A stretch of DNA of 12,085 nt from a virus (IMGVR_UViG_2529293043_000033); one strand, 5' to 3'; positions 1,419-12,085 are shown, counted from the first letter of the stretch. The notes: generated by a model from the letters alone, not told the origin. Program-made: numbers and translations.

Positions 1419-1856
1419 TTAAAAATCAGCCTGACTCGGGATCAGTTTTTGCCAGATAACTGAAACGTATTTTGCCTGGTAACGGGCGTCATCAAGTGCA
1501 TTATGGCGCTCACCTTCGAATGGAATAGCCGTTCTGGCATCGAAGTCTATGGCTTTCCCCAGCTCAACGATTGTGCGTACATCGCGATCGTTGTAGTAAC
1601 GCCACGGGCAGGGGATCCCCTGCCGTTCGTATGAACGGCGCAAAATCGTGTTGTCGAAGTTGGCTCCATTTCCCCAGACCTGAACAAAAAATTCACCGGA
1701 GTTTTCGTCGATAAATTCCCGCAATTGTAACAGTGCATCATCTAACGGGATTTCATCGGTCATAATGGCAGATTGCGCTTCGCGTGATTGCTTAAGCCAC
1801 CATTTAATGGTGTCCCTCGCCGTGTGCTTTCGTGTTGTGTGCCTGCTTTTTACCAC
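1419..1856 (-). CDS. DEDDh (DnaQ/KapD-like) 3'-5' exonuclease, apparently N-terminally truncated remnant
   Basis: Exo II-like motif (WGNGANFDNT) and Exo III-like motif (HNALDDARY) are present, but no Exo I D-x-E motif in the roughly 60 residues before Exo II. The frame is closed by a stop at 1904-1902 just upstream of the GTG start at 1856-1854, so the missing N-terminus is not encoded here. Confidence 0.6.
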   Translation of the reverse strand: MVKSRHTTRKHTARDTIKWWLKQSREAQSAIMTDEIPLDDALLQLREFIDENSGEFFVQVWGNGANFDNTILRRSYERQGIPCPWRYYNDRDVRTIVELGKAIDFDARTAIPFEGERHNALDDARYQAKYVSVIWQKLIPSQADF

Positions 1857-1940: not shown

Positions 1941-2456
1941 GTGATCGCTGAATTAACGGCAGCAATGACGGCTATTCGTGAAACCGCCCAGATTGCAAAA
2001 CTAATGAACGAGGCAAAAACTCAAGCTGAAGTAAATGCGGCTATTGGTGAACTGAACTCAAAGCTTGCATCTATTCAGCGCGAATGCGTGTCTCTCGTTG
2101 AGCTGGTGGGCACTTATCAAGAAATAAATGCTTCTCTCAAAGCTAAAATTGCAGAATTTGAAAACTTTGAGGCTCAGACGGAAGGTTATATCCTTAGCCA
2201 ACTTGAGTCGGGAACTTTTGTGTACTCGAAGGAGGTAACCGTGAACGGCGGCAGCATAATCATGCATCTTTGTCCAAAATGTTTTGGACAAAAGATAGTA
2301 TCGATACTTCAGCCATTCCCGGTTAGAGAATATGAATTTTTTCATAAAAGCAGGTGCCTGTACTGTGAAAATCAGTTTCTTATGAATAAAAATCCGGATT
2401 ACGTATCACCTCCATCTATTGAAGAGTTGGCCAGAAAACTGAACGGCAATCTGTAG
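1941..2456 (+). CDS. Hypothetical protein: N-terminal coiled-coil, C-terminal CxxC...CxxC zinc-ribbon; AT-rich accessory gene
   Basis: Likely start GTG 1941 (AAGAG 8 nt upstream); alternative ATG 1965 has no SD. About 41% GC by hand count over 1981-2460, versus roughly 50-55% in the neighbouring genes. Oriented against the flanking leftward genes. C-terminus has CPKC ... CLYC. The track's 1788 start runs antisense into the exonuclease gene and is unlikely. Confidence 0.5.
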   Translation: MIAELTAAMTAIRETAQIAKLMNEAKTQAEVNAAIGELNSKLASIQRECVSLVELVGTYQEINASLKAKIAEFENFEAQTEGYILSQLESGTFVYSKEVTVNGGSIIMHLCPKCFGQKIVSILQPFPVREYEFFHKSRCLYCENQFLMNKNPDYVSPPSIEELARKLNGNL

Positions 2457-3038: not shown

Positions 3039-3515
3039 TTAAGTTCCTGTCTTGGTGATGTTCTGGCTTTTCCGTTTTGATTCTTGATTTTTCAGATAGT
3101 TAGCTACCTTCATTTCCATTGCGGCAATGTAGGCACGAACGTCATGATCAACCCAACTAGGCTCCGTAGCATTTCCAGATAAGAGGAAAGCCACAATTGC
3201 TCTTTTTTCATCAGAGGCGGCTTGATAAAGGCTGTTTATGTCTAAAAGTTCACTTTTTGTATCTGAAGTGGATGGGGTTGGTATGGGGTATTCGTTAAGC
3301 CCCCAATGCTCTGGACCAACCACATCAGAAAAGAAACGCCATAGTTCTGGAAGTTTGTCTTTACTTATCGAACCTTTCTTAATCCAGTCATGGATTGATG
3401 GTGGTTGGACTTTGAAATGACGTGCGATTTCCGCCTTTGATTTGACGGCTCCTGATGCAATTTTTTTGTTAATGGCCTGCTCTATCGCTCGGCCTAAGTC
3501 TTTACCACTAAGCAT
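3039..3515 (-). CDS. racR: Prophage repressor, RacR-like (CI functional analogue)
   Basis: 158-aa ORF divergent from a YdaS/Cro-like gene and flanked on both sides by repeated operator palindromes. N-terminal HTH-like segment (AEIARHFKVQPPSIHDWIKKG). Size and context match the RacR-YdaS-YdaT immunity module. Confidence 0.75.
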   Translation of the reverse strand: MLSGKDLGRAIEQAINKKIASGAVKSKAEIARHFKVQPPSIHDWIKKGSISKDKLPELWRFFSDVVGPEHWGLNEYPIPTPSTSDTKSELLDINSLYQAASDEKRAIVAFLLSGNATEPSWVDHDVRAYIAAMEMKVANYLKNQESKRKSQNITKTGT

Positions 3516-3542
3516 TGCTTAATAGTCTCCTATGCGCATCGC

Positions 3543-3612
3543 ATTAGGCAATGCCTACTCTCGAAGCGTTAGGCATAGCCTATTGACAATTGCATTAGGC
3601 TAAGCCTAATAT
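3543..3612 (+). promoter_or_regulatory. Tripartite OR-like operator with rightward PR-like promoter
   Basis: Three palindromic sites with centres 25-26 bp apart: ATTAGGCAATGCCTAC (3543-3558), TAGGCATAGCCTA (3570-3582), and the perfect 7-3-7 palindrome ATTAGGCTAAGCCTAAT (3594-3610). Promoter -35 TTGACA (3583-3588), 18-bp spacer, -10 TAATAT (3607-3612), overlapping the third site. Confidence 0.65.
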
Positions 3613-3639
3613 TATTGTGTGTTTTTTGGAGTTCATTCG

Positions 3640-3963
3640 ATGAAAAAAGATAACTATTCATTCAAACGAGCTTGTGCTGTTGTCGGTGGGCAATCAGCAA
3701 TGGCTAGGCTTTTAGGTGTATCTCCTCCAAGCGTAAATCAATGGATCAAAGGTGTACGTCAGTTGCCTGCTGAGAGATGTCCTGCGATTGAACGAGCAAC
3801 AAAAGGTGGTGTCCTGTGTGAAGAACTTCGTCCTGATGTTGATTGGACATACTTACGACGCTCGTCATGTTATTCGCAGAATATGTCGATGAAGCAACCA
3901 AATGACGAAAACGATCATACCCGAAGCATCAAGAGGCAAATGATTCATGAAAATCAAACATGA
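3640..3963 (+). CDS. ydaS: Cro-like HTH regulator, YdaS family
   Basis: ATG 3640 with GGAG 9 nt upstream, about 20 nt from the predicted PR start site. MKKDNYSFKRACAVVGGQSAMARLLGVSPPSVNQWIKGVRQLPAERCPAIERA closely matches what I recall of Rac YdaS. The track's 3619 GTG start is less likely. Confidence 0.8.
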   Translation: MKKDNYSFKRACAVVGGQSAMARLLGVSPPSVNQWIKGVRQLPAERCPAIERATKGGVLCEELRPDVDWTYLRRSSCYSQNMSMKQPNDENDHTRSIKRQMIHENQT

Positions 3964-4372
3964 GCACATCCGCATGGCGATGAATGCCTGGGCATATCCT
4001 GATGGTGAGAAAGTTCCTGCAGCTGAAATAGCCCGGACTTATTTCGAACTGGGGATGACGTTCCCGGAACTGTACGACGACAGCCATCCGGAAGCCCTGG
4101 CTCGTAATACCCAGAAAATTTTCCGTTGGCTGGATAAAGACACCCCTGATGCTGTTGAAAAAATGCAGGCTCTGTTACCGGCGATCGAAAAGGCAATGCC
4201 GCCTCTGCTGGTGGCCCGTATGCGCAGTCACAGCTCTGAATATTACCGTGAGATCGTCGAACGGAGGGATCGGCTGGTGAAAGATGTGGATGATTTTGTC
4301 GCAGCGGCGATCGCCTGGGGCACCCTGACTAACAGTGGGGGTCAGCCTGGTAATGCTGTTGTCGTGCATTGA
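3947..4372 (+). CDS. ydaT: YdaT-like protein (toxic when derepressed; CII-like functional analogue)
   Basis: 141 aa, overlaps the ydaS-like stop by 17 bp. N-terminus MKIKHEHI and its position immediately after ydaS match the Rac/CP-933P arrangement. Confidence 0.7.
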   Translation: MKIKHEHIRMAMNAWAYPDGEKVPAAEIARTYFELGMTFPELYDDSHPEALARNTQKIFRWLDKDTPDAVEKMQALLPAIEKAMPPLLVARMRSHSSEYYREIVERRDRLVKDVDDFVAAAIAWGTLTNSGGQPGNAVVVH

Positions 4373-4440
4373 CCAACAATATTCATGCCGGATTTCTTCC
4401 GGATGTTCGAGGGTAAAGTTCGGTATCAGATGAGGTGAGT

Positions 4441-5478
4441 ATGGCTAATGCCTGGCTCAGATTGTGGCATGACATGCCAAATGATCCCAAATGGCGAACC
4501 ATTGCCAGGGTCTCAGGACAGCCAATCGCAACAGTGATGGCGGTGTATATCCACCTTCTGGTGAGTGCGTCACGAAATGTCACGAAATGTCACGGCGAGT
4601 CACTACGTGGTCACATTGATGTCACGACGGAAGATTTAGCAAGTGCGCTTGATGTGACGGAAGACGTGATTGATTCAATTTTGCATGCAATGCAGGGGCG
4701 AGTTCTGGATGGCGATCTTATTTCCGGATGGGAAAAACGCCAGGTGATGAAGGAGGATAACGGTAATGTTTCGCAAACCGCAAAATCCCCGGCAGAGCGC
4801 AAGAGAGCGCAGCGGGAGCGGGAAAGACTGCGGGAGCAGAACACTGATTGTCACGATGAGTCACGACGCGTCACGCATATGTCACGACAAGTCACGACAG
4901 ATACAGATACAGATAAAGAATTAAACCCCACACATAACGCGCGCATGCGCGAGAGTGCTCCAGCCAGTGAGTCGAATGGCGCGCCGTTGCAGACAGCAGA
5001 ACCTGAATACCCGGATGGCCTGAGCGAACCGATCGGGAAATTTCCGATGACTGGTGTCTGGCGGCCGTCGCTGGATTTTCGACAGCGGGCTGCATTGTGG
5101 GGTATGGCTCTGCCTGAGCCTGAGTTTACACCTGCTGAGCTTGCCGCATTCCGGGATTACTGGATGGCGGAGGGGAAGGTTTTCACGCAGGTTCAGTGGG
5201 AGCAGAAATTTGCCCGTCACGTGCAGCACGTCAGGGCACAGGTAAAACCAGTCAGCAAGGGGGTAAGCCATGCAGCACCAGGTGGCACCGCATCACGGGC
5301 AGTTCAGGAAATTCGGGCAGCACGTGAACAGTGGGAACGTGAAAACGGATTTATCAGCAACGGAAACGGCCTGGAAGCTGTGGGAACTTATGGGGGAGGT
5401 GTATTCGAACCGCTGGACCCAGAAGAACGGGGCTGCGCCGTCGAAGCTCTGGATTGCTCAGATTGGCGCGATGACTGA
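4441..5478 (+). CDS. Replication initiator, lambda O-like (YdaU/DUF1376-type N-terminus), contains the origin iterons; C-terminus possibly extended
   Basis: ATG 4441 with GAGG 5 nt upstream (the track's GTG 4435 is less likely). N-terminus MANAWLRLWHDMPNDPKWRTIA. Two iteron arrays lie inside the gene, as in lambda O. The last roughly 70 codons overlap the P-like gene out of frame and are low-complexity. Confidence 0.75.
   Translation: MANAWLRLWHDMPNDPKWRTIARVSGQPIATVMAVYIHLLVSASRNVTKCHGESLRGHIDVTTEDLASALDVTEDVIDSILHAMQGRVLDGDLISGWEKRQVMKEDNGNVSQTAKSPAERKRAQRERERLREQNTDCHDESRRVTHMSRQVTTDTDTDKELNPTHNARMRESAPASESNGAPLQTAEPEYPDGLSEPIGKFPMTGVWRPSLDFRQRAALWGMALPEPEFTPAELAAFRDYWMAEGKVFTQVQWEQKFARHVQHVRAQVKPVSKGVSHAAPGGTASRAVQEIRAAREQWERENGFISNGNGLEAVGTYGGGVFEPLDPEERGCAVEALDCSDWRDD
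4569..4626. repeat. Iteron array I: six GTCAC(G) repeats at 10-11 bp spacing (candidate ori)
   Basis: GTCACGAAAT GTCACGAAAT GTCACGGCGA GTCACTACGTG GTCACATTGAT GTCACGACGG; copies start at 4569, 4579, 4589, 4599, 4610 and 4621. Confidence 0.75.
4850..4914. repeat. Iteron array II: five GTCACG repeats at 10-11 bp spacing, followed by an (ACAGAT)x3 tandem repeat
   Basis: GTCACG at 4850, 4860, 4870, 4881 and 4891; tandem hexamer 4897-4914 (encodes TDTDTD in the O-like protein). A GCGCGCATGCGCG palindrome follows at about 4929-4942. Confidence 0.75.
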
Positions 5479-5932
5479 ACAGCAAATCCGGCAGGTCTGC
5501 CGTCAGTGCATGGACCGCTGCCGGGCGGGTGAAACGTGGCCTCCGGACCTGGCTGAGTTTGTGGCGTTGATTTCGGAGAGCGGGGCAAATCCATTTGGCC
5601 TGACGGTGGATGCCGTGATGGAGGAGTACCGTCGCTGGAGGAATGAATCCTGGCGGTACGACGGGAGTGATAAATACCCGTGGCCACAGCCGGTGCTGTA
5701 CCACATTTGCCTCGAGATGCGTGACAGAGGGATTGAGCGGCAGATGACGGAAGGTGAGTTAAAACGACTTGCAGAACGGCAACTGACGAAATGGGCAAAG
5801 CAAGTTGGTAACGGGATGAGTATTCCCCCGATCCGGAGACAACTCGCATCGCCGAAGTGCCCGCAAGGGCCAACGCCAATTGAATTACTGAAACAGGAAT
5901 ACGAGCGCCGGAAGGCGGCTGGTTTTGTTTGA
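5270..5932 (+). CDS. Replication protein P-like (helicase loader, lambda P family)
   Basis: ATG 5270 with AAGGGGG SD 6 nt upstream. Recalled similarity to lambda P (TWPPDLAEFVALI versus PFLPSPGQFVAWC; YDGSDKYPWPQP versus YPDAESYPWKSN) falls at comparable residue positions, and the 220-aa length is close to lambda P (233 aa). An alternative coupled start ATG 5471 (ATGACTGA with the O stop) cannot be excluded. Confidence 0.7.
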   Translation: MQHQVAPHHGQFRKFGQHVNSGNVKTDLSATETAWKLWELMGEVYSNRWTQKNGAAPSKLWIAQIGAMTEQQIRQVCRQCMDRCRAGETWPPDLAEFVALISESGANPFGLTVDAVMEEYRRWRNESWRYDGSDKYPWPQPVLYHICLEMRDRGIERQMTEGELKRLAERQLTKWAKQVGNGMSIPPIRRQLASPKCPQGPTPIELLKQEYERRKAAGFV

Positions 5933-5965
5933 ATCTGAGAAACGATTTTGTCGGAGGAAATTTTA

Positions 5966-6682
5966 ATGGAAACCGTATCTGACGCACTGAAAGCACTGAA
6001 AAGAGCCTCTTCACATGTGGTGGCAGCTCGCCTTGGAATTAGTCGTGAAGAGGCTGTCAACGAACTGTGGAAACTGAAACGCCGTGGAGAAGCGGATAAC
6101 AAGGGGGCGATATGGTGGCTGACTCAGGCTGGTGAAAGTGAACCGGTGTCACCGGTACCGAAAGTGACGGCGCAAATGCTGACAGAGGCGATTGAACAAC
6201 ATGGCCCACAAACGGCGGATGAACTGGCATTGATGTTCGGAATTACCTCCCGCCGGGCGAATTCATCGCTGGCAATGGCAATCAGCAAAGGGTGTCTGAT
6301 TCGCGTGAATCAGGATGGTAAATTTCGTTACTGCATACCGGGCGTTGATTTACCGGCAGAGCCGAAAGCAGCATCCGTAGCTGAAACGGAGGGTAAAGCC
6401 CTTCCTCAGCCAGCTGGTGTTGCGTTACCAGTCCAGGAAACGGCTGCACAGGAAGAAATTAAAACAGAAGCGGTGGAGGACATTGTGAAGTTGCAGCAAT
6501 CGTTCACTGAAGCGAAAGCAGATGACCTGATTCTACCATCGCTGCATGTGGCTAACCGCGAGCTGCGCCGGGCGAAAAGTAATGTTCAGAAGTGGGAGCG
6601 AGTCTGTGCTGCGCTACGGGAACTGAACAAACACAGGGATATTCTCCGGGATATTACCGCCACCAGAGAGCAGCAGCGGTGA
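5966..6682 (+). CDS. Hypothetical protein with two winged-helix-like segments and a C-terminal coiled-coil (possibly DUF1627-like)
   Basis: ATG 5966 with GGAGG 8 nt upstream; the track's start at 5948 is a TTG. HTH-like segments [19 protein letters not shown] and [24 protein letters not shown]. Confidence 0.55.
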
Positions 6683-6996
6683 GTGGCTGGAAGAAGTGGC
6701 GCTGGGCTGAAATCCTGATACTCCGGCAGTGTGCGGGAACGATGAGAGTCGAAAGCATCGGTTATCTGATTGGCCGTAGTGAGTCAGCCGTCAGGACGAA
6801 AGCGCGGGAACTGGGTATCAGCATGATGTTACGGGGTGATTATCACCAGTCAGCCAAATGTTCACAGCGTGATATTGAGCTGGCGTGGCAACTGCATCAG
6901 CGTGGTGTACCCCGACGGGAAATTGCCGAAAAGTTTGGGATGAAGTTGGGCGCAGTGAATAACTACGTTTATTTCGACAGGAGGGTTCAGGAGTGA
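6679..6996 (+). CDS. Hypothetical DNA-binding protein (two HTH-like segments)
   Basis: In-frame GTG at 6679 overlaps the upstream TGA (GTGA coupling); alternative ATG at 6742. HTH-like segments [20 protein letters not shown] and [20 protein letters not shown]. Confidence 0.45.
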
Positions 6997-6998
6997 GG

Positions 6999-7295
6999 GT
7001 GAGGGTTTATATCGCCGGTCCGATGACGGGATATGAAAATTTTAACCGCGAGGCATTTCACAAAACGGAAGAGGTGCTGAAACGGGAAGGGCATACCGTT
7101 TTAAACCCGGCAGTACTTCCGGACGGGCTGACTCAGCCACACTACATGGATATTTGCATGGCAATGCTCCGTTGCGTGGATGCGGTTTACATGCTGAAAG
7201 GCTGGCAGCAGTCGGCAGGTGCAGGGGCTGAGCTGGCACTGGAGGAGAAACCGGGCCATGCGGTGATTTTTCAGGAGGTGGGCAGTGAATATTGA
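6999..7295 (+). CDS. DUF4406-like protein (nucleoside 2-deoxyribosyltransferase-like fold)
   Basis: VYIAGPMTG N-terminal motif with a downstream W..S.G.GAE pattern. GTG 6999 with AGGAG 7 nt upstream (the track's GTG 6993 has no usable spacing). Confidence 0.6.
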   Translation: MRVYIAGPMTGYENFNREAFHKTEEVLKREGHTVLNPAVLPDGLTQPHYMDICMAMLRCVDAVYMLKGWQQSAGAGAELALEEKPGHAVIFQEVGSEY

Positions 7296-7602
7296 CCCGG
7301 CGATAACGATTGATATGGCCCTGAACGCCGGCCTGGCACTTCTTGGTTATTTCTACATTATGTTCTGCAGCGGACGATGGCTGTCACTGTTGTTCATGAA
7401 AAAATGGAATAAACGCCGTAAGCAGGAGCAACGCCAGAAGGCAATGGATGCATTTTTCGAAGCCTTCGGAATTGACGGCATGGAACCAGGGGATCCAGCT
7501 CGCGCAATCAGCAGAGGGGGTGTAGTAATCCTTGTATATCGGAGTGAAGAGAAAAATGACGATCACAAAACAACGTGTAGAAGAAATCATATCCCGCATT
7601 GA
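7285..7602 (+). CDS. Hypothetical small membrane protein
   Basis: GTG 7285 with AGGAGG 6 nt upstream. Predicted TM helix ALNAGLALLGYFYIMFCSGRWLSLLFM followed by a basic stretch. The 3' end overlaps the next gene by about 47 bp, so its extent is uncertain. Confidence 0.4.
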   Translation: MNIDPAITIDMALNAGLALLGYFYIMFCSGRWLSLLFMKKWNKRRKQEQRQKAMDAFFEAFGIDGMEPGDPARAISRGGVVILVYRSEEKNDDHKTTCRRNHIPH

Positions 7603-7873
7603 AATGTATGGACATGGTGCAGGGTATATCGCAGACGAGGTTAATGATCTGGCTATACTGGCGCTGAATTTATCAAATATCGCGAACCTGAAGCGATACG
7701 AGCTTGATATGGGAGGTTGCGACTCGTGCGGTCAGGATTGTGGCGCTGATATGACTGAAGATCCTGATGGTGATTATGTCCTGTTTGATGACGTGGTTAA
7801 GTTGTTTGAATTTGATACAACCACTCAAAAGTTAGAAATCCCGGCAAAGGAGGCAGCCAGTGGGCAAGATTGA
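7556..7873 (+). CDS. Hypothetical acidic protein
   Basis: ATG 7556 preceded by GGAGTGAAGAG. 105 aa with a CDSCGQDCG cysteine cluster and an acidic C-terminus. Confidence 0.5.
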   Translation: MTITKQRVEEIISRIEMYGHGAGYIADEVNDLAILALNLSNIANLKRYELDMGGCDSCGQDCGADMTEDPDGDYVLFDDVVKLFEFDTTTQKLEIPAKEAASGQD

Positions 7874-8297
7874 CTATCAGGCACTGCGTGAGGCAGCACA
7901 AAACTATCAATCGACGCTGGCGTGGTATCAGGCTACCCCGGACAGCCCAAATGCTGAACGGGATTGTGATGCGGCTCTTGCTGCGTTTAAGCGTCACATC
8001 CGTCATCGGGAAGCGGATATTATCGCTGATTTGCTGGATGGACTGGAAGAAGCAAAATCACAACTCAACGAGCAGCGTGAGTATTACGAAGGCGTTATCT
8101 CTGATGGGAGCAAGCGTATTGCTGAACTGGAAGCGCGGGAAGTTCAATTACCGACTCGCTACGACCTTCGATATGGACACCCGATAAATGCAGATGAGCG
8201 ACATGTCATGATACCTAAAGAAAATGGCAGTTGGCTTTACCTGATTGACCTAGAACACGCATTACGCGTCGCTGGCATTCGCATCAAAGGAGAGTGA
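7860..8297 (+). CDS. Ea22-like prophage protein (N-terminal QALREAA motif)
   Basis: GTG 7860 with AAGGAGG 6 nt upstream; overlaps the upstream gene by 14 bp. N-terminus IDYQALREAAQNY is characteristic of the E. coli prophage ead/Ea22-like family. Confidence 0.55.
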   Translation: MGKIDYQALREAAQNYQSTLAWYQATPDSPNAERDCDAALAAFKRHIRHREADIIADLLDGLEEAKSQLNEQREYYEGVISDGSKRIAELEAREVQLPTRYDLRYGHPINADERHVMIPKENGSWLYLIDLEHALRVAGIRIKGE

Positions 8298-8298
8298 G

Positions 8299-8490
8299 AT
8301 GAACGGACAAATATCAATTGTTCGACCAGGAGCATGTGACGATCGCGAAATACGAATGATTATTCGTCTGGCGATGGGGAAAACAATAACTGCTCTCATT
8401 ACTCCAGAAAATCTCGCATTAGCATTAACAGGAAAGTCAGACATGCCAGTAGAGCTAAAGCTGCGAAATGTTGAGATTAAGGTGAAATAG
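8299..8490 (+). CDS. Hypothetical small protein (63 aa)
   Basis: ATG 8299 with AGGAG upstream, starting 1 nt after the preceding stop; tightly packed between neighbouring genes. Confidence 0.5.
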   Translation: MNGQISIVRPGACDDREIRMIIRLAMGKTITALITPENLALALTGKSDMPVELKLRNVEIKVK

Positions 8491-8492
8491 CT

Positions 8493-9080
8493 ATGACCAC
8501 TATTACCAAAGATCGACTGCTGACAATCCAGCATTGGCGCGAAACATACGGACCGGGTAGCAACGTTGTGCTTCCAGCAGAAGAAGCGGAAGAGCTGGCA
8601 CGGATTGCGCTGGCATCACTGGCAGCAGTATCGGATGAACGAGCAGCCTATGAATTATTTATGGAGAAGCGTTTCGGAGAATCTGTAGATCGCCGCAGAG
8701 CAAAAAATGGCGATAGAGATTACATGGTATGGGATATGGCGCTTGGCTGGATTATCTGGTGTCACCGCGCCGCCATGCTTCAGGCTGGAAACTTTCGGGA
8801 AAATAAGGGTTCGTCAACCAATAATTTTCGGGAAATCTCGGAAACGTCAACCAACTATCCGGTAACTCCGGATGGTTGGATAAGCTGTAGTGAGCGAATG
8901 CCGGATGATGGTCAGCACGTAATTATTTTATGTGATGGCGCATTCGTTCTTTATGCGCAATATCGAGACGGTGAGTTTTTTGATGTAGTCCGTAATGGTG
9001 ATGAATTTTTCGAAACACAGAGCCGCAATGTAACCGACTGGATGCCGCTACCAGAACCGCCGCAGGAGGTGCGCCAATGA
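8493..9080 (+). CDS. DUF551-domain prophage protein
   Basis: C-terminal motif TDWMPLPEPP typical of DUF551; starts 2 nt after the preceding stop. Confidence 0.65.
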   Translation: MTTITKDRLLTIQHWRETYGPGSNVVLPAEEAEELARIALASLAAVSDERAAYELFMEKRFGESVDRRRAKNGDRDYMVWDMALGWIIWCHRAAMLQAGNFRENKGSSTNNFREISETSTNYPVTPDGWISCSERMPDDGQHVIILCDGAFVLYAQYRDGEFFDVVRNGDEFFETQSRNVTDWMPLPEPPQEVRQ

Positions 9081-9160
9081 TCTGGCCTGAAGCCTTTGCA
9101 ATTACAGGCGTTGCTATAGCTATTGATTTTTTAGTATATGTTATTTGTCGGTGGGGGTAA
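9077..9160 (+). CDS. Small hydrophobic peptide (27 aa, MIWPEAFAITGVAIAIDFLVYVICRWG), not in the ORF track
   Basis: ATG 9077 overlaps the DUF551 stop (ATGA); AGGAGG at 9064-9069 gives a 7-nt spacer. One predicted TM helix. Confidence 0.4.
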   Translation: MIWPEAFAITGVAIAIDFLVYVICRWG

Positions 9161-9195
9161 AAACGTTCGCCGGGATTCACACCAAAGGAGGGAAT

Positions 9196-9300
9196 ATGTC
9201 GGATGATATTTCACTGGCAATGGAAGGTGCGCTGGCTGTTATTGCTGTTGTGGGCGTTTACTGCCTGGTTGTGTTTTTGATGGATCGACTAGGGAACTGA
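9196..9300 (+). CDS. Small membrane peptide (34 aa, MSDDISLAMEGALAVIAVVGVYCLVVFLMDRLGN), not in the ORF track
   Basis: ATG 9196 preceded by AAAGGAGGG. One predicted TM helix. Followed immediately by a perfect 22-bp palindrome. Confidence 0.45.
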   Translation: MSDDISLAMEGALAVIAVVGVYCLVVFLMDRLGN

Positions 9301-9308
9301 ATTCATTA

Positions 9309-9330
9309 CGATATGGGAATTCCCATATCG
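9309..9330. repeat. Perfect 22-bp palindrome CGATATGGGAATTCCCATATCG
   Basis: Read directly; self-complementary around GAATTC. Lies between the second small peptide and the putative hok promoter; no U-tract follows. Confidence 0.7.
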
Positions 9331-9342
9331 GGTAAAAACGGT

Positions 9343-9370
9343 TTGCGGTAAAGCGAGAGTTAAGTAGAAT
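9343..9370 (+). promoter_or_regulatory. Candidate hok mRNA promoter
   Basis: -35 TTGCGG (9343-9348), 16-bp spacer, -10 TAGAAT (9365-9370). A transcript from here to the terminator at about 9796 would be about 420 nt, the expected hok mRNA size. Confidence 0.35.
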
Positions 9371-9429
9371 TGCTGCGGGTGCTTGAGGCTGTCTGCCTCG
9401 GGCATGCCACCGTAAGGTAGACAGAGAAA

Positions 9430-9497
9430 AGCCCCAGTTAACATTACGCGTCCTGCAAGACGCCTAACATTAATCTGAGGCCAATTTCATGCTAGAC
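9430..9497 (-). ncRNA. Candidate Sok-like antisense RNA (approximate extent)
   Basis: Minus-strand promoter candidate -35 TTGCCT (9532-9527), 17-bp spacer, -10 TAACCT (9509-9504), placing an antisense transcript over the mok/hok leader and start region as in hok/sok loci. The 3' end was not resolved. Confidence 0.3.
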
Positions 9498-9545
9498 ACA
9501 TGTAGGTTAGCCTCTTACGCGCCGAAAGGCAAGGAGAAGCAGGCT

Positions 9546-9701
9546 ATGAAGCAGCAAAAGGCGATGTTAATCGCCCTGATCGTCATCTGTATCACCGTCA
9601 TAGTGACGGCACTGGTAACGAGGAAAGACCTCTGCGAGGTACGAATCCGAACCGGCCAGACGGAGGTCGCTGTCTTCACAGCTTACGAACCTGAGGAGTA
9701 A
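9546..9701 (+). CDS. hokD: Hok/Gef-family type I toxin (HokD/RelF-like)
   Basis: 51-aa product MKQQKAMLIALIVICITVIVTALVTRKDLCEVRIRTGQTEVAVFTAYEPEE, near-identical to HokD/RelF as I recall it. AGGAG 9 nt upstream of ATG 9546. An in-frame upstream ATG at 9489 gives a mok-like leader frame. Confidence 0.85.
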   Translation: MKQQKAMLIALIVICITVIVTALVTRKDLCEVRIRTGQTEVAVFTAYEPEE

Positions 9702-9770
9702 GAGACCCGGCGAGGGAGAAATCCCTCGCCACCTCTGATGAATCAGGCATCCTCAACGCACCCGCACTTA

Positions 9771-9796
9771 ACCCGCTTCGGCGGGTTTTGTTTTTT
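9771..9796 (+). terminator. Rho-independent terminator of the hok transcript
   Basis: CCCGC-TTCG-GCGGG stem-loop (9772-9785) followed by TTTTGTTTTTT. Preceded by an fbi-like hairpin GGCGAGGGA-GAAA-TCCCTCGCC at 9709-9730. Confidence 0.75.
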
Positions 9797-9868
9797 CCTG
9801 GCATTCTGGTTTACAATTCGCACGCCAGCCTGAACAACTGGCACCTGCTGCGCCAGCAGAGACAACCG

Positions 9869-10147
9869 ATGGCGCACGATACCAAATTATACAATTCTGA
9901 TGATTCTGCCGTCTTTGCCAGCAGGCGCGGACGGTGTTTTCACGCATTCAAATCTGACTGGTACCAGCATCCCCCATGCACTGAAGAACAGGCCGAATGG
10001 CTCATTCAGTGTTACCGCAGGCGCGGATGCGAGGTTAAAAAAGCCCTTAGCCTCGACTACCGTCACTGGATAATCTCCGTCAGGCTCCCTTACTCCGAAC
10101 GGCCACCGCGTCCGTCCCGCACATTCCAGCAACGGATCTGGAGGTAA
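9869..10147 (+). CDS. Hypothetical protein, Rem-like by position (follows hok as in Qin prophage)
   Basis: First ATG after the terminator (9869), 92 aa. The track's 9788 start lies inside the terminator. Cysteine-rich (C..H ... PPC ... C..RRGC). Assignment is by synteny only. Confidence 0.45.
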   Translation: MAHDTKLYNSDDSAVFASRRGRCFHAFKSDWYQHPPCTEEQAEWLIQCYRRRGCEVKKALSLDYRHWIISVRLPYSERPPRPSRTFQQRIWR

Positions 10148-10148
10148 T

Positions 10149-10832
10149 GTGCGGGTATTACTTCGACCTGTTCTGGTACCGGAACTCGGTCTGGTTATCG
10201 TTAAGCCAGGCCGTGAATCAATGTCAGCATTCCATAACGGCAGAATACTGGTGGAGCCGGAACCAAAAAGCATGCGAGCTCTGCCGTCCGGGGTTGTACC
10301 TGCCGTTCACCAGCCGCTGGCGGAAGATAAATCACTACTGCCATTTTTCAGCGATGAGCGGGTGATCCGTGCTGCGGGTGGCGCTGGTGCACTGTCTGAC
10401 TGGTTATTACGTCACGTGAAATCCTGCCAGTGGCTACACGGTGATTATCATCATAGCGAAACCGTCATTCACCGTTACGGTACCGGCGCGATGGTGTTGT
10501 GCTGGCACTGCGACAACCAGCTGCGGGAGCAGACATCTGATTCACTGGATCAACTTGCTCAACAGAATCTGGCCGCCTGGATGATTGACATCATCCGTCA
10601 CGCAATGAATGGCGCACAGGAGCGTGAATTATCTCTGGCTGAATTATCCTGGTGGGCGGTCCGCAATCAGGTGGCGGACGCGCTACCGGAAGCGGTATTA
10701 CGTCGTTCGCTGGGGTTGCGTGCGGAAAAAATCCGCTCCGTATACCGTGAAAGCGACATCATACCGGGAGAACAGACCGCCACCAGCATACTGAAGCAGC
10801 GCACAAAAAATATTGCGCTACCGTCTCACTGA
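10149..10832 (+). pseudogene. DUF968-like protein (YdfU-like), 3'-truncated by IS insertion
   Basis: GTG 10149 with GGAGG 6 nt upstream. Contains a CQWLHGDYHH ... CWHCDNQ zinc-finger-like motif. The ORF runs to the IS boundary and its stop codon TGA (10830-10832) is the first three bases of the IS inverted repeat; K-12 YdfU is about 349 aa versus 227 here. Confidence 0.6.
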
Positions 10833-10871: not shown

Positions 10872-11762
10872 TCAGGCTGCCAGATCATCGTTTCCGATGG
10901 AAGCATAATAAGCTTTTTCTGCTTCTGCCGGAGGAGTATGGCCCAGCCTTCCCAGCAATCGTCGATTGTTATACCAGTCCACCCACGTTAGTGTGGCCAG
11001 TTCCACTTCTGCACGGTTTTTCCAGCTCTTACGGTGTATTACCTCCGCTTTGTAAAGACCATTGATGCTCTCAGCCATCGCGTTGTCATACGAGTCGCCT
11101 GTACTCCCTGTTGATGCCAGTAATCCGGCTTCTTTTAGTCGCTCCGTATAGGCCAGTGACACATACTGAGAGCCTTTATCGCTGTGATGGATGGTGCCAG
11201 ACGGACGACGGGCCCACAACGCCTGCTCCAGCGCATCCAGCACGAATGTCGTTTCCATAGACGATGAGACCCGCCACCCCACGATGTATCCGGCAAACAC
11301 ATCAATGATAAACGCCACATAGACGAAGCCCTGCCATGTGCTGACGTAAGTAAAATCAGCCACCCACAGCTGGTCAGGTCGTTCTGCCACGAACTGACGG
11401 TTTACGCGGTCGCCTGCGGCAACGGCTTTCCGGCTGATGGTCGTACGGACCTTTTTACCCCGGAGAACACCGGCAAGTCCCATAACCGCCATGAGACGTG
11501 CCACTGTACATCTGGCCACCCTGATTCCTTCCCGTAACAACTGACGCCAGACTTTACGCACACCGTACACCTGATGATTTTCATCGTATACGCGCTGTAT
11601 CTCTCTCTTCAGCCAGTCGTCGTGCTGCGCACGGGCACTGCGTTTATCCGGATGATGTCGCTGTTGCTGACAATGGTAATACGTTGACGGGGCAATATGC
11701 AGTTCGCTGCATACCGGTCCGACCCCGTACTGCTCACGCAGCTTATCCAGCAGTGGCATCAT
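10872..11762 (-). CDS. IS3-family transposase OrfB (DDE/integrase catalytic domain)
   Basis: 296 aa; DDE-type motifs (WVADFTYV ... [10 protein letters not shown]); overlaps the orfA stop (ATGA). Confidence 0.9.
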
Positions 11763-12085
11763 TTTTTCCAGAGGCGGTCGAACTCCGCCTTCGCAAAATA
11801 AGCGGAAGCCTGGCGAAGGATATCGTTACTGCGGCGCAGTTCACGATTTTCACGTTCCAGCTCTTTCAGACGCTGACGTTCAGCGCTGGTGAGCCCACCA
11901 TCACCGCCCCCGGTATCCCGCTCATGCTGGCGAACCCAGACACGCAGAGTCTCCGGCGTACAGCCAATCTTTGGGGCAATGGAACAAATTGCCGCCCACT
12001 GTGAGTCATATTCATCCTGACTTTCCAGAACCATACGAATCGCCCGCTGACGGACTTCGGGGGAAAAACGAGTATTTTTAGTCAT
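11759..12085 (-). CDS. IS3-family transposase OrfA (HTH and leucine zipper)
   Basis: 108 aa, [22 protein letters not shown] ... [31 protein letters not shown]. The ATG sits on the last 3 bases of the window. An A6 run at the orfA/orfB junction is the presumed -1 frameshift site. Confidence 0.9.

Follow-up and report, generated by a model that had tools for sequence, protein, structure and literature searches.

What are eight small genes, packed end to end behind the replication genes of a lambdoid prophage, and do they form a working unit or a row of separate acquisitions? This is the question raised by positions 6679-9160 of IMGVR_UViG_2529293043_000033, a viral stretch of DNA that was analysed over its full length of 12,085 nucleotides (hereafter the window). 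A preliminary description, made from the sequence alone, had singled out this interval as a chain of coupled accessory genes, one of which encodes a DUF4406 protein. Here we propose, with a probability of roughly 75%, that the chain is the distal, non-essential part of a pR-type operon in a potC-located prophage of the Sp6 type, and that it consists of coupled, exchangeable cassettes, among them a nucleotide hydrolase of the DUF4406 family and a trio of genes that modulates lysogeny.

Eight genes in one packed chain

The interval is delimited exactly by the start of its first gene (g1) and the stop of its last (g8). The junctions were read straight from the sequence and then tabulated with start codons, distances and Shine-Dalgarno (SD) energies; below, each distance is counted from the stop of the preceding gene, which for g1 is the DUF1627 gene.

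6679-6996, plus strand: g1, putative DNA-binding protein; GTG start, -4 nt from the DUF1627 stop (GTGA overlap)
6993-7295, plus strand: g2, DUF4406 protein; GTG start, -4 nt (GTGA overlap)
7285-7602, plus strand: g3, DUF4752 protein; GTG start, -11 nt (11-nt overlap)
7556-7873, plus strand: g4, acidic protein; ATG start, -47 nt (47-nt overlap)
7860-8297, plus strand: g5, Ead/Ea22-like protein; GTG start, -14 nt (14-nt overlap)
8299-8490, plus strand: g6, 63-aa protein; ATG start, +1 nt gap
8493-9080, plus strand: g7, DUF551 protein; ATG start, +2 nt gap
9077-9160, plus strand: g8, probable 27-aa peptide; ATG start, -4 nt (ATGA overlap)

All eight junctions lie between -47 and +2 nt on one strand, which agrees with the eight consecutive plus-strand genes with overlapping or abutting starts and stops of the preliminary description, and four of the eight starts are GTG. 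Such tight gene packing is customary in phage early operons and is unremarkable in itself. The start of g2 is ambiguous, as the majority of its family members start two residues later, at what would be GTG 6999, giving a +2 gap; with either start (6993 or 6999), g2 and its neighbour abut. The members of the chain are genuine genes (g8 probably) and not chance open reading frames (ORFs), because the products of all but one fall into Pfam or PHROG families, at E-values between 1e-13 and 1e-66, PGAP calls g1 to g7 at identical coordinates in a 100%-identical genome, and the frame of g8, which is left unannotated there, is conserved in five loci.

The pairing of these genes with the ribosome differs considerably along the chain. 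It is strong (-9 to -12 kcal/mol) for g2, g3, g5, g6 and g8, moderate for g4 (-6.1) and weak for g7 (-4.8), and for g1 it is at background level (-2.9 kcal/mol, with a background mean of -3.45). Since g1 has no SD of its own and its GTG start sits inside GTGA, it is the best candidate for strict termination-reinitiation coupling, and its translation should depend on ribosomes terminating at the DUF1627 stop. Coupling is likely for g1, and also for g7, given the weak SD of the latter and its start 2 nt past a stop, and the geometry makes it plausible for all eight genes. As such, the term 'translationally coupled' in the preliminary description fits the overlaps, while the coupling itself is deduced from that geometry.

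Upstream and downstream of the chain, the following features bear on its transcription:

3583-3612, plus strand: pR-like promoter candidate, TTGACA-18-TAATAT, a consensus match between the racR-like repressor gene and the ydaS-like gene
5966-6682, plus strand: DUF1627 (YdaW-like) gene, Pfam DUF1627 with E 6.8e-82, also called by PGAP; its TGA stop overlaps the GTG of g1
9770-9787, plus strand: first strong plus-strand intrinsic-terminator-like hairpin with a T-run, directly after hokD; AACCCGCTTCGGCGGGTT followed by TTGTTTTTT

A simple scan of 3300-10200 gave 3583-3612 as the sole plus-strand promoter-like site, and the consensus scan found neither an internal promoter-like site nor a strong terminator-like site in the chain. 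The single terminator-like site within it, at 7367-7384, is weak, with five pairs of which three are G-C. Rfam, including a permissive search, reported no RNA family within the chain, and places the beginning of the sok antisense RNA at 9377. Junctions are tight upstream as well, with overlaps of 17 nt between ydaS and ydaT and of 8 nt between O and P. Taking together the lone promoter-like site, the lack of a strong internal terminator and these tight upstream junctions, the chain is best read, on consensus scans, as the distal part of a single early-right operon, after the replication genes and before hokD. Loss of the RacR-like repressor would then set off transcription from about 3583, probably through the ydaS/ydaT-like genes, O (DnaT-like), P and DUF1627, and directly on into the eight genes of the chain. 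Ribosomes would most likely pass from gene to gene by termination-reinitiation, because starts and stops overlap or lie within 2 nt of each other, four starts are GTG, and g1 is without an SD.

The prophage itself can be placed with some precision. Many chromosomes of E. coli O157:H7 carry the interval with 100% identity, next to potC. In strain TR01 the prophage adjoins potC, and its 5' order is integrase, excisionase, a truncated 3'-5' exonuclease, a racR-like repressor and a helix-turn-helix gene, continuing with a YdaT-like gene, a DnaT-like replication gene, replication protein P, DUF1627 and then the chain genes; 3' of these follow a 34-aa ORF, hokD, DUF968, rusA, lysis genes and terminase. 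The potC/potB insertion site is that of the Sakai prophage Sp6 (PMC8190617), for which reason Sakai Sp4 was rejected as the prophage type. The window thus represents a lambdoid, Rac-like prophage that sits at potC in E. coli O157:H7 and belongs to the Sakai Sp6 type.

The DUF4406 protein

The product of g2 (100 aa) matches Pfam DUF4406 (PF14359) at 115.1 bits, with a cut-off of 22, its residues 4-92 covering profile positions 2-90 of 91, and it belongs to PHROG 355, which is annotated 'nucleoside 2-deoxyribosyltransferase'. In the AlphaFold model, built with 38 homologues (pLDDT 88.4), four strands alternate with three helices, and the best Foldseek matches in the PDB are nucleoside 2-deoxyribosyltransferase (NDT), DNPH1/Rcl and MilB, with TM values of 0.7-0.78 (2a0k, TMq 0.73; DNPH1, 0.72; MilB, 0.76-0.78). 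As modelled, DUF4406 has the flavodoxin-like fold of the nucleoside deoxyribosyltransferases.

What matters more for function is how the active site is furnished. The DUF4406 family profile aligns weakly (E 0.16) and end to end with the NDT of T. brucei, placing E80 on the nucleophile Glu (of AFEVG) and S74 on the Asp six residues earlier. The pairwise alignment with human DNPH1, whose sequence was verified against PDB chains beforehand, is co-linear but low-scoring; it pairs Y6 with Y24, D53 with D80, S74 with S98 and E80 with E104, and the spacing S74-x-G-x-G-x-E80 is identical to S98-L-G-V-G-Y-E104 of DNPH1. In the latter enzyme Y24, D80 and E104 form the catalytic triad, with E104 as the nucleophile, and S98 binds the 5'-phosphate (PMC10603095). 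Hydrolases of the superfamily act on (deoxy)nucleoside monophosphates and are without the Asp/Asn that holds the 5'-OH in transferases (PMC12884076). That 5'-OH-binding Asp/Asn, located six residues before the nucleophile in classical transferases, is Ser74 in DUF4406. A profile search of 1.84 billion representatives returned 19,205 DUF4406 clusters at 50% identity, and residue conservation was counted in the best 146: all 140 of those aligned keep S74, and 138 of 140 keep E80 and likewise G76, while position 6 is occupied by Tyr in 119 cases and by Phe in 20.

Because Ser74 replaces the 5'-OH-binding Asp, in the manner of the phosphate-binding Ser of DNPH1, and because Glu80 and Tyr6 are kept, cleavage of a nucleotide is predicted over exchange of its base. 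We therefore predict that g2 encodes a (deoxy)nucleotide N-glycosidase-like enzyme, resembling DNPH1 or the phage protein DmtZ, a dAMP N-hydrolase described in a 2026 study (PMC12884076), and not a nucleoside transferase. It would most likely hydrolyse the N-glycosidic bond of a nucleoside 5'-monophosphate and so trim a nucleotide pool in lytic growth. The preliminary description had assigned the protein to the NDT fold, suggested a part in nucleotide metabolism and proposed looking for a catalytic Glu or Asp in a predicted structure. The fold has held up in AlphaFold and Foldseek and the putative catalytic residue is Glu, at E80; with Ser74 at the position of the NDT Asp, the site looks more like that of a nucleotide hydrolase than that of a nucleoside transferase.

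Domain fusions were considered as a functional lead and discarded, as ten longer DUF4406-containing proteins were without a second Pfam domain; a 'MazG-like pyrophosphatase' fusion in Arthrobacter and Pseudomonas phage homologues was likewise rejected, being the mere name of a DUF4406-like ORF. A search of the full-text literature on DUF4406, DUF4752 and DUF1627 yielded no study of their function. DUF4406 is a large family, for which there is now a clear and assayable active-site prediction.

Exchangeable cassettes and the Ead/Ea22-DUF551 trio

Of 5426 complete E. coli genomes, 3204 contain parts of the interval (3681 with a wider query), whereas at least 80% of it, the full chain, is present in only 287; no phage record covers 80% of the interval. 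In a spread sample of E. coli genomes, homology breaks at 6990, 7278-7283, 7549-7562, 7844-7846, 8301-8302, 8493, 8852 and 9070-9071, and in strain M18 homology starts at 9077, the start of g8. These positions correspond to the starts of g2, g3, g4, g5, g6, g7, the DUF551 domain and g8. The GC content at third codon positions falls stepwise from g1 to g8 (0.58, 0.58, 0.49, 0.42, 0.45, 0.33, 0.44 and 0.29), which fits cassettes of different origin. Since the breakpoints sit at gene or domain starts, the occurrence among genomes is patchy and base composition follows this gradient, the chain genes are independent, exchangeable cassettes and not a pathway, with their joints at gene boundaries in the classical manner of lambdoid phages. 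Moreover, homologues of g3-g7 lie in the early-left operon of the Stx phages P13374 and Stx1_14040, between exo/rec and xis/int, and in Uetakevirus PAS61 and Rac-SA53 homologues follow the replication genes, as they do here. With the same genes found in either place, it follows that the cassettes move between the two early operons.

Three of the genes travel in a recognizable arrangement, with g6 as its anchor. g5 encodes a 145-aa Ead/Ea22-like protein that matches Pfam Ead_Ea22 at 51.4 bits (cut-off 27) over residues 3-65, corresponding to the N-terminal and coiled-coil module. Its C-terminal half differs from Ea22 and gives a marginal MucB_RseB match (23.6 bits, residues 65-116), and a PDB sequence search did not match it to the solved C-terminal domain of lambda Ea22. 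The 63-aa product of g6 belongs to PHROG 1222 (E 1e-40), with no Pfam family and no known function; its family is narrow, with 88 clusters in Enterobacterales only, and its AlphaFold model (pLDDT 81.6) found no fold match in the PDB and only uncharacterised phage proteins in BFVD. g7 encodes 195 aa, in which a variable N-terminal part is connected by a linker to a C-terminal DUF551 domain (PF04448; 75.9 bits with a cut-off of 22, E 4.5e-21, residues 128-191). The linker holds a 33-nt tandem duplication at 8790-8854, with 75% identity, encoding FRENKGSSTNN/FREISETSTNY. This repeat ends where homology recurrently breaks, at 8852, which is also the start of the DUF551 domain; Tandem Repeats Finder reported nothing in 6600-9400.

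The arrangement was surveyed in 80 viral loci encoding close relatives of g6, which is preceded there by 48 distinct proteins and followed by 52. In 77 of 79 loci a single nucleotide separates the stop of the preceding gene from the ATG of g6, and in 70 of 73 two nucleotides separate the g6 stop from the next start, so that the flanking junctions read TGA-1 nt-ATG and TAG-2 nt-ATG; the junction sequence, ATCAAAGGAGAGTGAGATG, hardly varies from locus to locus. Ead_Ea22 is matched by 35 of the 48 distinct upstream proteins, and DUF551 occurs in 41 of the 50 downstream proteins scanned, with an additional dATP/dGTP pyrophosphohydrolase domain in five. Among the upstream proteins hardly anything is shared but the last residues, IRIKGE, which overlap the ribosome-binding site of g6, and g6 itself is 95-100% identical where its neighbours are 35-45%. 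The junctions on both sides of g6 (window 8280-8495) look like conserved linkers at which cassettes are exchanged.

What would such a trio do? Ea22 of lambda and of Stx phages is reported to be pro-lysogenic, and the Stx Ea22 variant V2 fuses the N-terminal part of Ea22 directly to DUF551 (PMC10834534), which, as a fusion, hints at a joint action of g5 and g7. On the model of Ea22, the trio would most likely modulate the lysis-lysogeny decision or host physiology. The preliminary description had called the Ea22-like and DUF551 genes modular families common in E. coli prophages, in line with the presence of parts of the interval in the majority of complete genomes given above, and of unknown function, a statement refined by the published phenotype of Ea22 in lambda and Stx phages (PMC10834534). 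As a conserved unit moving between both early operons, the trio helps to interpret the genetics of the exo-xis region in Stx phages.

The other members of the chain are known by little more than their families, as the public names of the chain proteins are 'hypothetical', 'DUF...' or 'DNA-binding protein' only, the last used by one source for g1. g1 encodes a basic protein (105 aa, pI 10) with two helix-turn-helix repeats, matching PHROG 323 'transcriptional regulator' (E 1.8e-24, residues 5-104) and weakly Sigma70_r4_2, and is predicted to be a tandem helix-turn-helix DNA-binding protein; the span of the PHROG alignment supports its GTG start at 6679. g3 encodes a 105-aa DUF4752 protein (PF15944; 132.1 bits with a cut-off of 27, E 7.5e-39, residues 7-90), in which a hydrophobic N-terminal segment is followed by a basic stretch, with a KD19 hydropathy maximum of 1.54, borderline for a membrane anchor. 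Members of its family are 94-105 aa long, and its tail runs 15 codons beyond the end of the family profile, with the 47-nt overlap with g4 (7549-7602). The ATG of g4 lies within AAAAATGA, right behind an A-run, and this junction may once have been a canonical ATGA stop/start overlap, lost through a 1-nt indel. The acidic g4 protein (105 aa, pI 4.1) has a CxxCxxxC motif and no Pfam family; it matches PHROG 3126, which has no known function, over 1-105 of 105 (E 2.5e-66), supporting the ATG at 7556. PDB sequence searches for g1, g2, g4, g5, g6 and g7 gave chance-level matches only. The PADLOC scan of ten proteins and the NCBIfam scan of the chain proteins, equivalogs included, gave no match.

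The last gene of the chain leads over to a module of its own. g8 encodes a 27-aa, single-pass hydrophobic peptide (KD19 hydropathy 2.31), and its frame of 27 codons is uninterrupted in five loci, which between them have three different genes upstream; the 6-nt deletion carried by one of these loci preserves the frame. The ATGA overlap is kept despite unrelated upstream genes (three loci). We regard g8 as probably a real gene, and grade it as probable and not proven because its substitutions show no clear bias to synonymous changes; this conserved membrane-peptide gene is absent from the current annotation. Next to it stands a second small ORF:

9196-9300, plus strand: orf34, 34-aa membrane peptide (WP_001278450.1, hypothetical protein), strong SD, 35 nt after g8

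orf34 has a KD19 hydropathy of 2.72, and its substitutions among five loci are largely synonymous; it lies outside 6679-9160 and in the same transcription unit as the chain. g8 and orf34 travel with sok/hokD as one module behind different upstream genes, and by this pattern g8 belongs evolutionarily with the downstream orf34-sok/hokD module. Between the stop of orf34 and sok/hok, at 9309-9330, there is also a perfect 22-nt palindrome, CGATATGGGAATTCCCATATCG, which is conserved in the five loci. No T-run follows it, unlike in a classical terminator, and it may serve to bind a protein or form a hairpin in RNA.

Rival readings and known systems

Several observations weigh against the reading of the chain as an operon part with a nucleotide hydrolase and a lysogeny-modulating trio. 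The promoter and terminator scans are consensus matches only, and the five genes with strong SDs (g2, g3, g5, g6 and g8) could be initiated independently. For the enzyme, no sequence-profile link between DUF4406 and DNPH1 was found (profile-profile hhalign probability 0.3, at the N-terminus only; hmmsearch not significant), and the residue correspondences with DNPH1 rest on the NDT alignment, one low-scoring pairwise alignment and the fold match; MAFFT misaligned the C-terminal half of DUF4406 with DNPH1. The putative general acid D53 is Asp in 70 of the best 146 representatives and is absent in remote members. Furthermore, g2 is without the C-terminal helical extension that gives the partner subunit of DNPH1 a second phosphate-binding Ser: it ends about 7 residues past its last strand (E90-93), at 100 aa versus the 145-152 aa of the DNPH1 PDB constructs. 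Compared with its closest relatives, the O157 allele of g2 carries R78G, A84E and L87P (window 7224-7254), none of them more than 10 residues away from Glu80; of 139 representatives, 133 have Ala at position 84, and the six residues most often found at position 87 do not include Pro. These three clustered substitutions could reflect relaxed constraint or a changed specificity, and this copy of DUF4406 may be impaired or inactive. Finally, the prophage is decaying outside the chain, with a truncated exonuclease, an insertion sequence (IS) in DUF968 and a partial rusA in the reference copy. The features concerned are:

1419-1856, minus strand: Rv2179c-like 3'-5' exonuclease gene, N-terminal part gone (profile positions 47-177 of 177 matched), a pseudogene according to PGAP
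10149-10832, plus strand: DUF968 gene, truncated by the IS and intact in the TR01 prophage copy
10872-12085, minus strand: IS3-family element with orfA and orfB
11688-11804: ALIL frameshift pseudoknot of the IS3-family element (Rfam RF01497)

Elsewhere in the window there is one more ORF of note:

1941-2456, plus strand: 171-aa ORF, GC 0.41, on the strand opposite to the early-left genes

Its N-terminus is coiled-coil-like and its C-terminus carries two CxxC pairs; Pfam gave no significant match and PADLOC no match, and the ORF looks like a moron-type insertion.

Could the whole chain then be functionless cargo of a defective prophage, its frames intact only through the youth of the clonal O157:H7 lineage? 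The pseudogenes and the IS insertion would fit, as would the DUF4406 allele with its three substitutions at conserved positions beside the catalytic Glu and the 15-aa tail of g3 beyond the family profile, and among the 287 genomes (those listed being O157:H7 or related) identity is about 100%, so that purifying selection is not visible. All eight frames are intact, however, together with their SDs and the coupling geometry; the cassettes are conserved elsewhere, as seen from the 19,205 DUF4406 clusters and from the identity of g6 beside its divergent neighbours, and frameshifted copies are readily seen in related loci, meaning that decay is detectable and is absent here. We therefore hold this to be rather improbable. 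Even less credit is given to the possibility that DUF4406 is a true nucleoside 2-deoxyribosyltransferase, which swaps the bases of deoxynucleosides for salvage or base modification. While the name of PHROG 355, the two best Foldseek matches (the transferases 2a0k and 6evs) and the presence of the nucleophile Glu and the Tyr speak for it, the place of the 5'-OH-holding Asp is taken in DUF4406 by an invariant Ser, the signature of nucleotide-specific hydrolases (PMC10603095, PMC12884076), and the protein has 100 aa where NDTs have about 150-160, without their C-terminal active-site segment.

The chain might also be an anti-defence or host-takeover island, in which every small early protein would counter one immune or stress system of the host and DUF4406 would destroy a nucleotide signal or a modified nucleotide of a defence system; although unlikely in our view, this is the alternative to which we give the most credit. 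Its genes are early, small, highly mosaic and interchangeable between early operons, the typical pattern of phage counter-defence, neighbouring slots elsewhere hold the Lar restriction-alleviation protein and fusions of DUF550 dATP/dGTP pyrophosphohydrolase with DUF551, and the active-site pattern of DUF4406 is nucleotide-cleaving. On the other hand, no characterised anti-defence family was matched in the libraries scanned, of which PADLOC covers defence systems only, a full-text search of the literature on the DUF names found no such role reported, and the published phenotype of Ea22 is pro-lysogenic. A bolder conjecture, and in our eyes a long shot, is that DUF4406 proteins are widespread, minimal phage N-glycosidases of about 100 aa that destroy a specific (deoxy)nucleoside monophosphate early in lytic growth, with the trio as a three-part module acting together with nucleotide-pool enzymes, because DUF551 is also fused to dATP/dGTP pyrophosphohydrolases. 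If true, the target could be a damaged, modified or defence-generated nucleotide, or the precursor of a signal.

Returning to the proposed early-right operon part with its hydrolase and its trio, how does it compare with systems already described? For g2, the likeness to DNPH1/Rcl, MilB and DmtZ consists of the same fold, the Glu and Tyr, and a Ser placed as Ser98 of DNPH1, and DmtZ is an example of phages using N-hydrolase chemistry, on dAMP (PMC12884076). It differs from DNPH1 in being about 45 residues shorter than the PDB constructs, with no C-terminal extension and no significant profile relation, and in that the general-acid Asp is not conserved across DUF4406. A Z-genome context is absent here, as there is no purZ or dutZ.

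On the map, the chain occupies the same slot as the nin region of lambda and P22 (ninA-ninH, between P/ren and Q), from the replication genes to Q and late control, and like that region it has many short genes, overlapping stops and starts, and mosaic exchange at gene boundaries. The preliminary description had found no recognizable core lambdoid function and had named ordinary nin-region genes as what searches might reveal instead. Searches with each ORF against Pfam, PHROG and NCBIfam gave no Nin family (NinB/Orf, NinE, NinF, NinG/Rap, NinH or NinI phosphatase), and for no chain gene was there a match to a lambda nin gene, an NCBIfam equivalog or a PADLOC family; furthermore, the recombination-type genes of this prophage, DUF968 and rusA, lie further downstream. 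What the region amounts to is a textbook case of the mosaic, packed accessory part of a lambdoid early operon, whose existence is unsurprising and whose members are uncharacterised representatives of known families.

A parallel in gene order is offered by Rac and Rac-SA53, which share the immunity and replication module (racR-like, ydaS/T-like, DnaT-like, P, DUF1627/ydaW). Rac-SA53 carries a DUF4406 gene (87% identical) and Ead-type genes after ydaW and before hok and Q; it differs in having LygF before DUF4406, and Eae, rac21 and rac22 after it. LygF was considered as a counterpart of g1 and rejected, as the two are unrelated. The Rac prophage of K-12 (ydaS-ydaT-ydaU-ydaV-ydaW) has presumably lost this part.

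Finally, the exo-xis region of lambda and Stx phages (orf60a, orf63, orf61, orf73 and ea22) likewise consists of small, early, non-essential genes. Whereas that region belongs to the pL operon, the chain lies in the early-right operon behind the replication genes; the best matches of the chain genes are other families, with none to lambda orf60a, orf61, orf63 or orf73. Compared with lambda Ea22, g5 is without the C-terminal domain, and the Ea22-like and DUF551 parts are separate genes with a 63-aa gene between them. What connects the two regions is the Ead_Ea22 N-terminal and coiled-coil module of g5, the DUF551 domain, which forms the C-terminal domain of the Stx Ea22 variant V2, and the homologues of g3-g7 that sit in the exo-xis region itself in P13374 and Stx1_14040.

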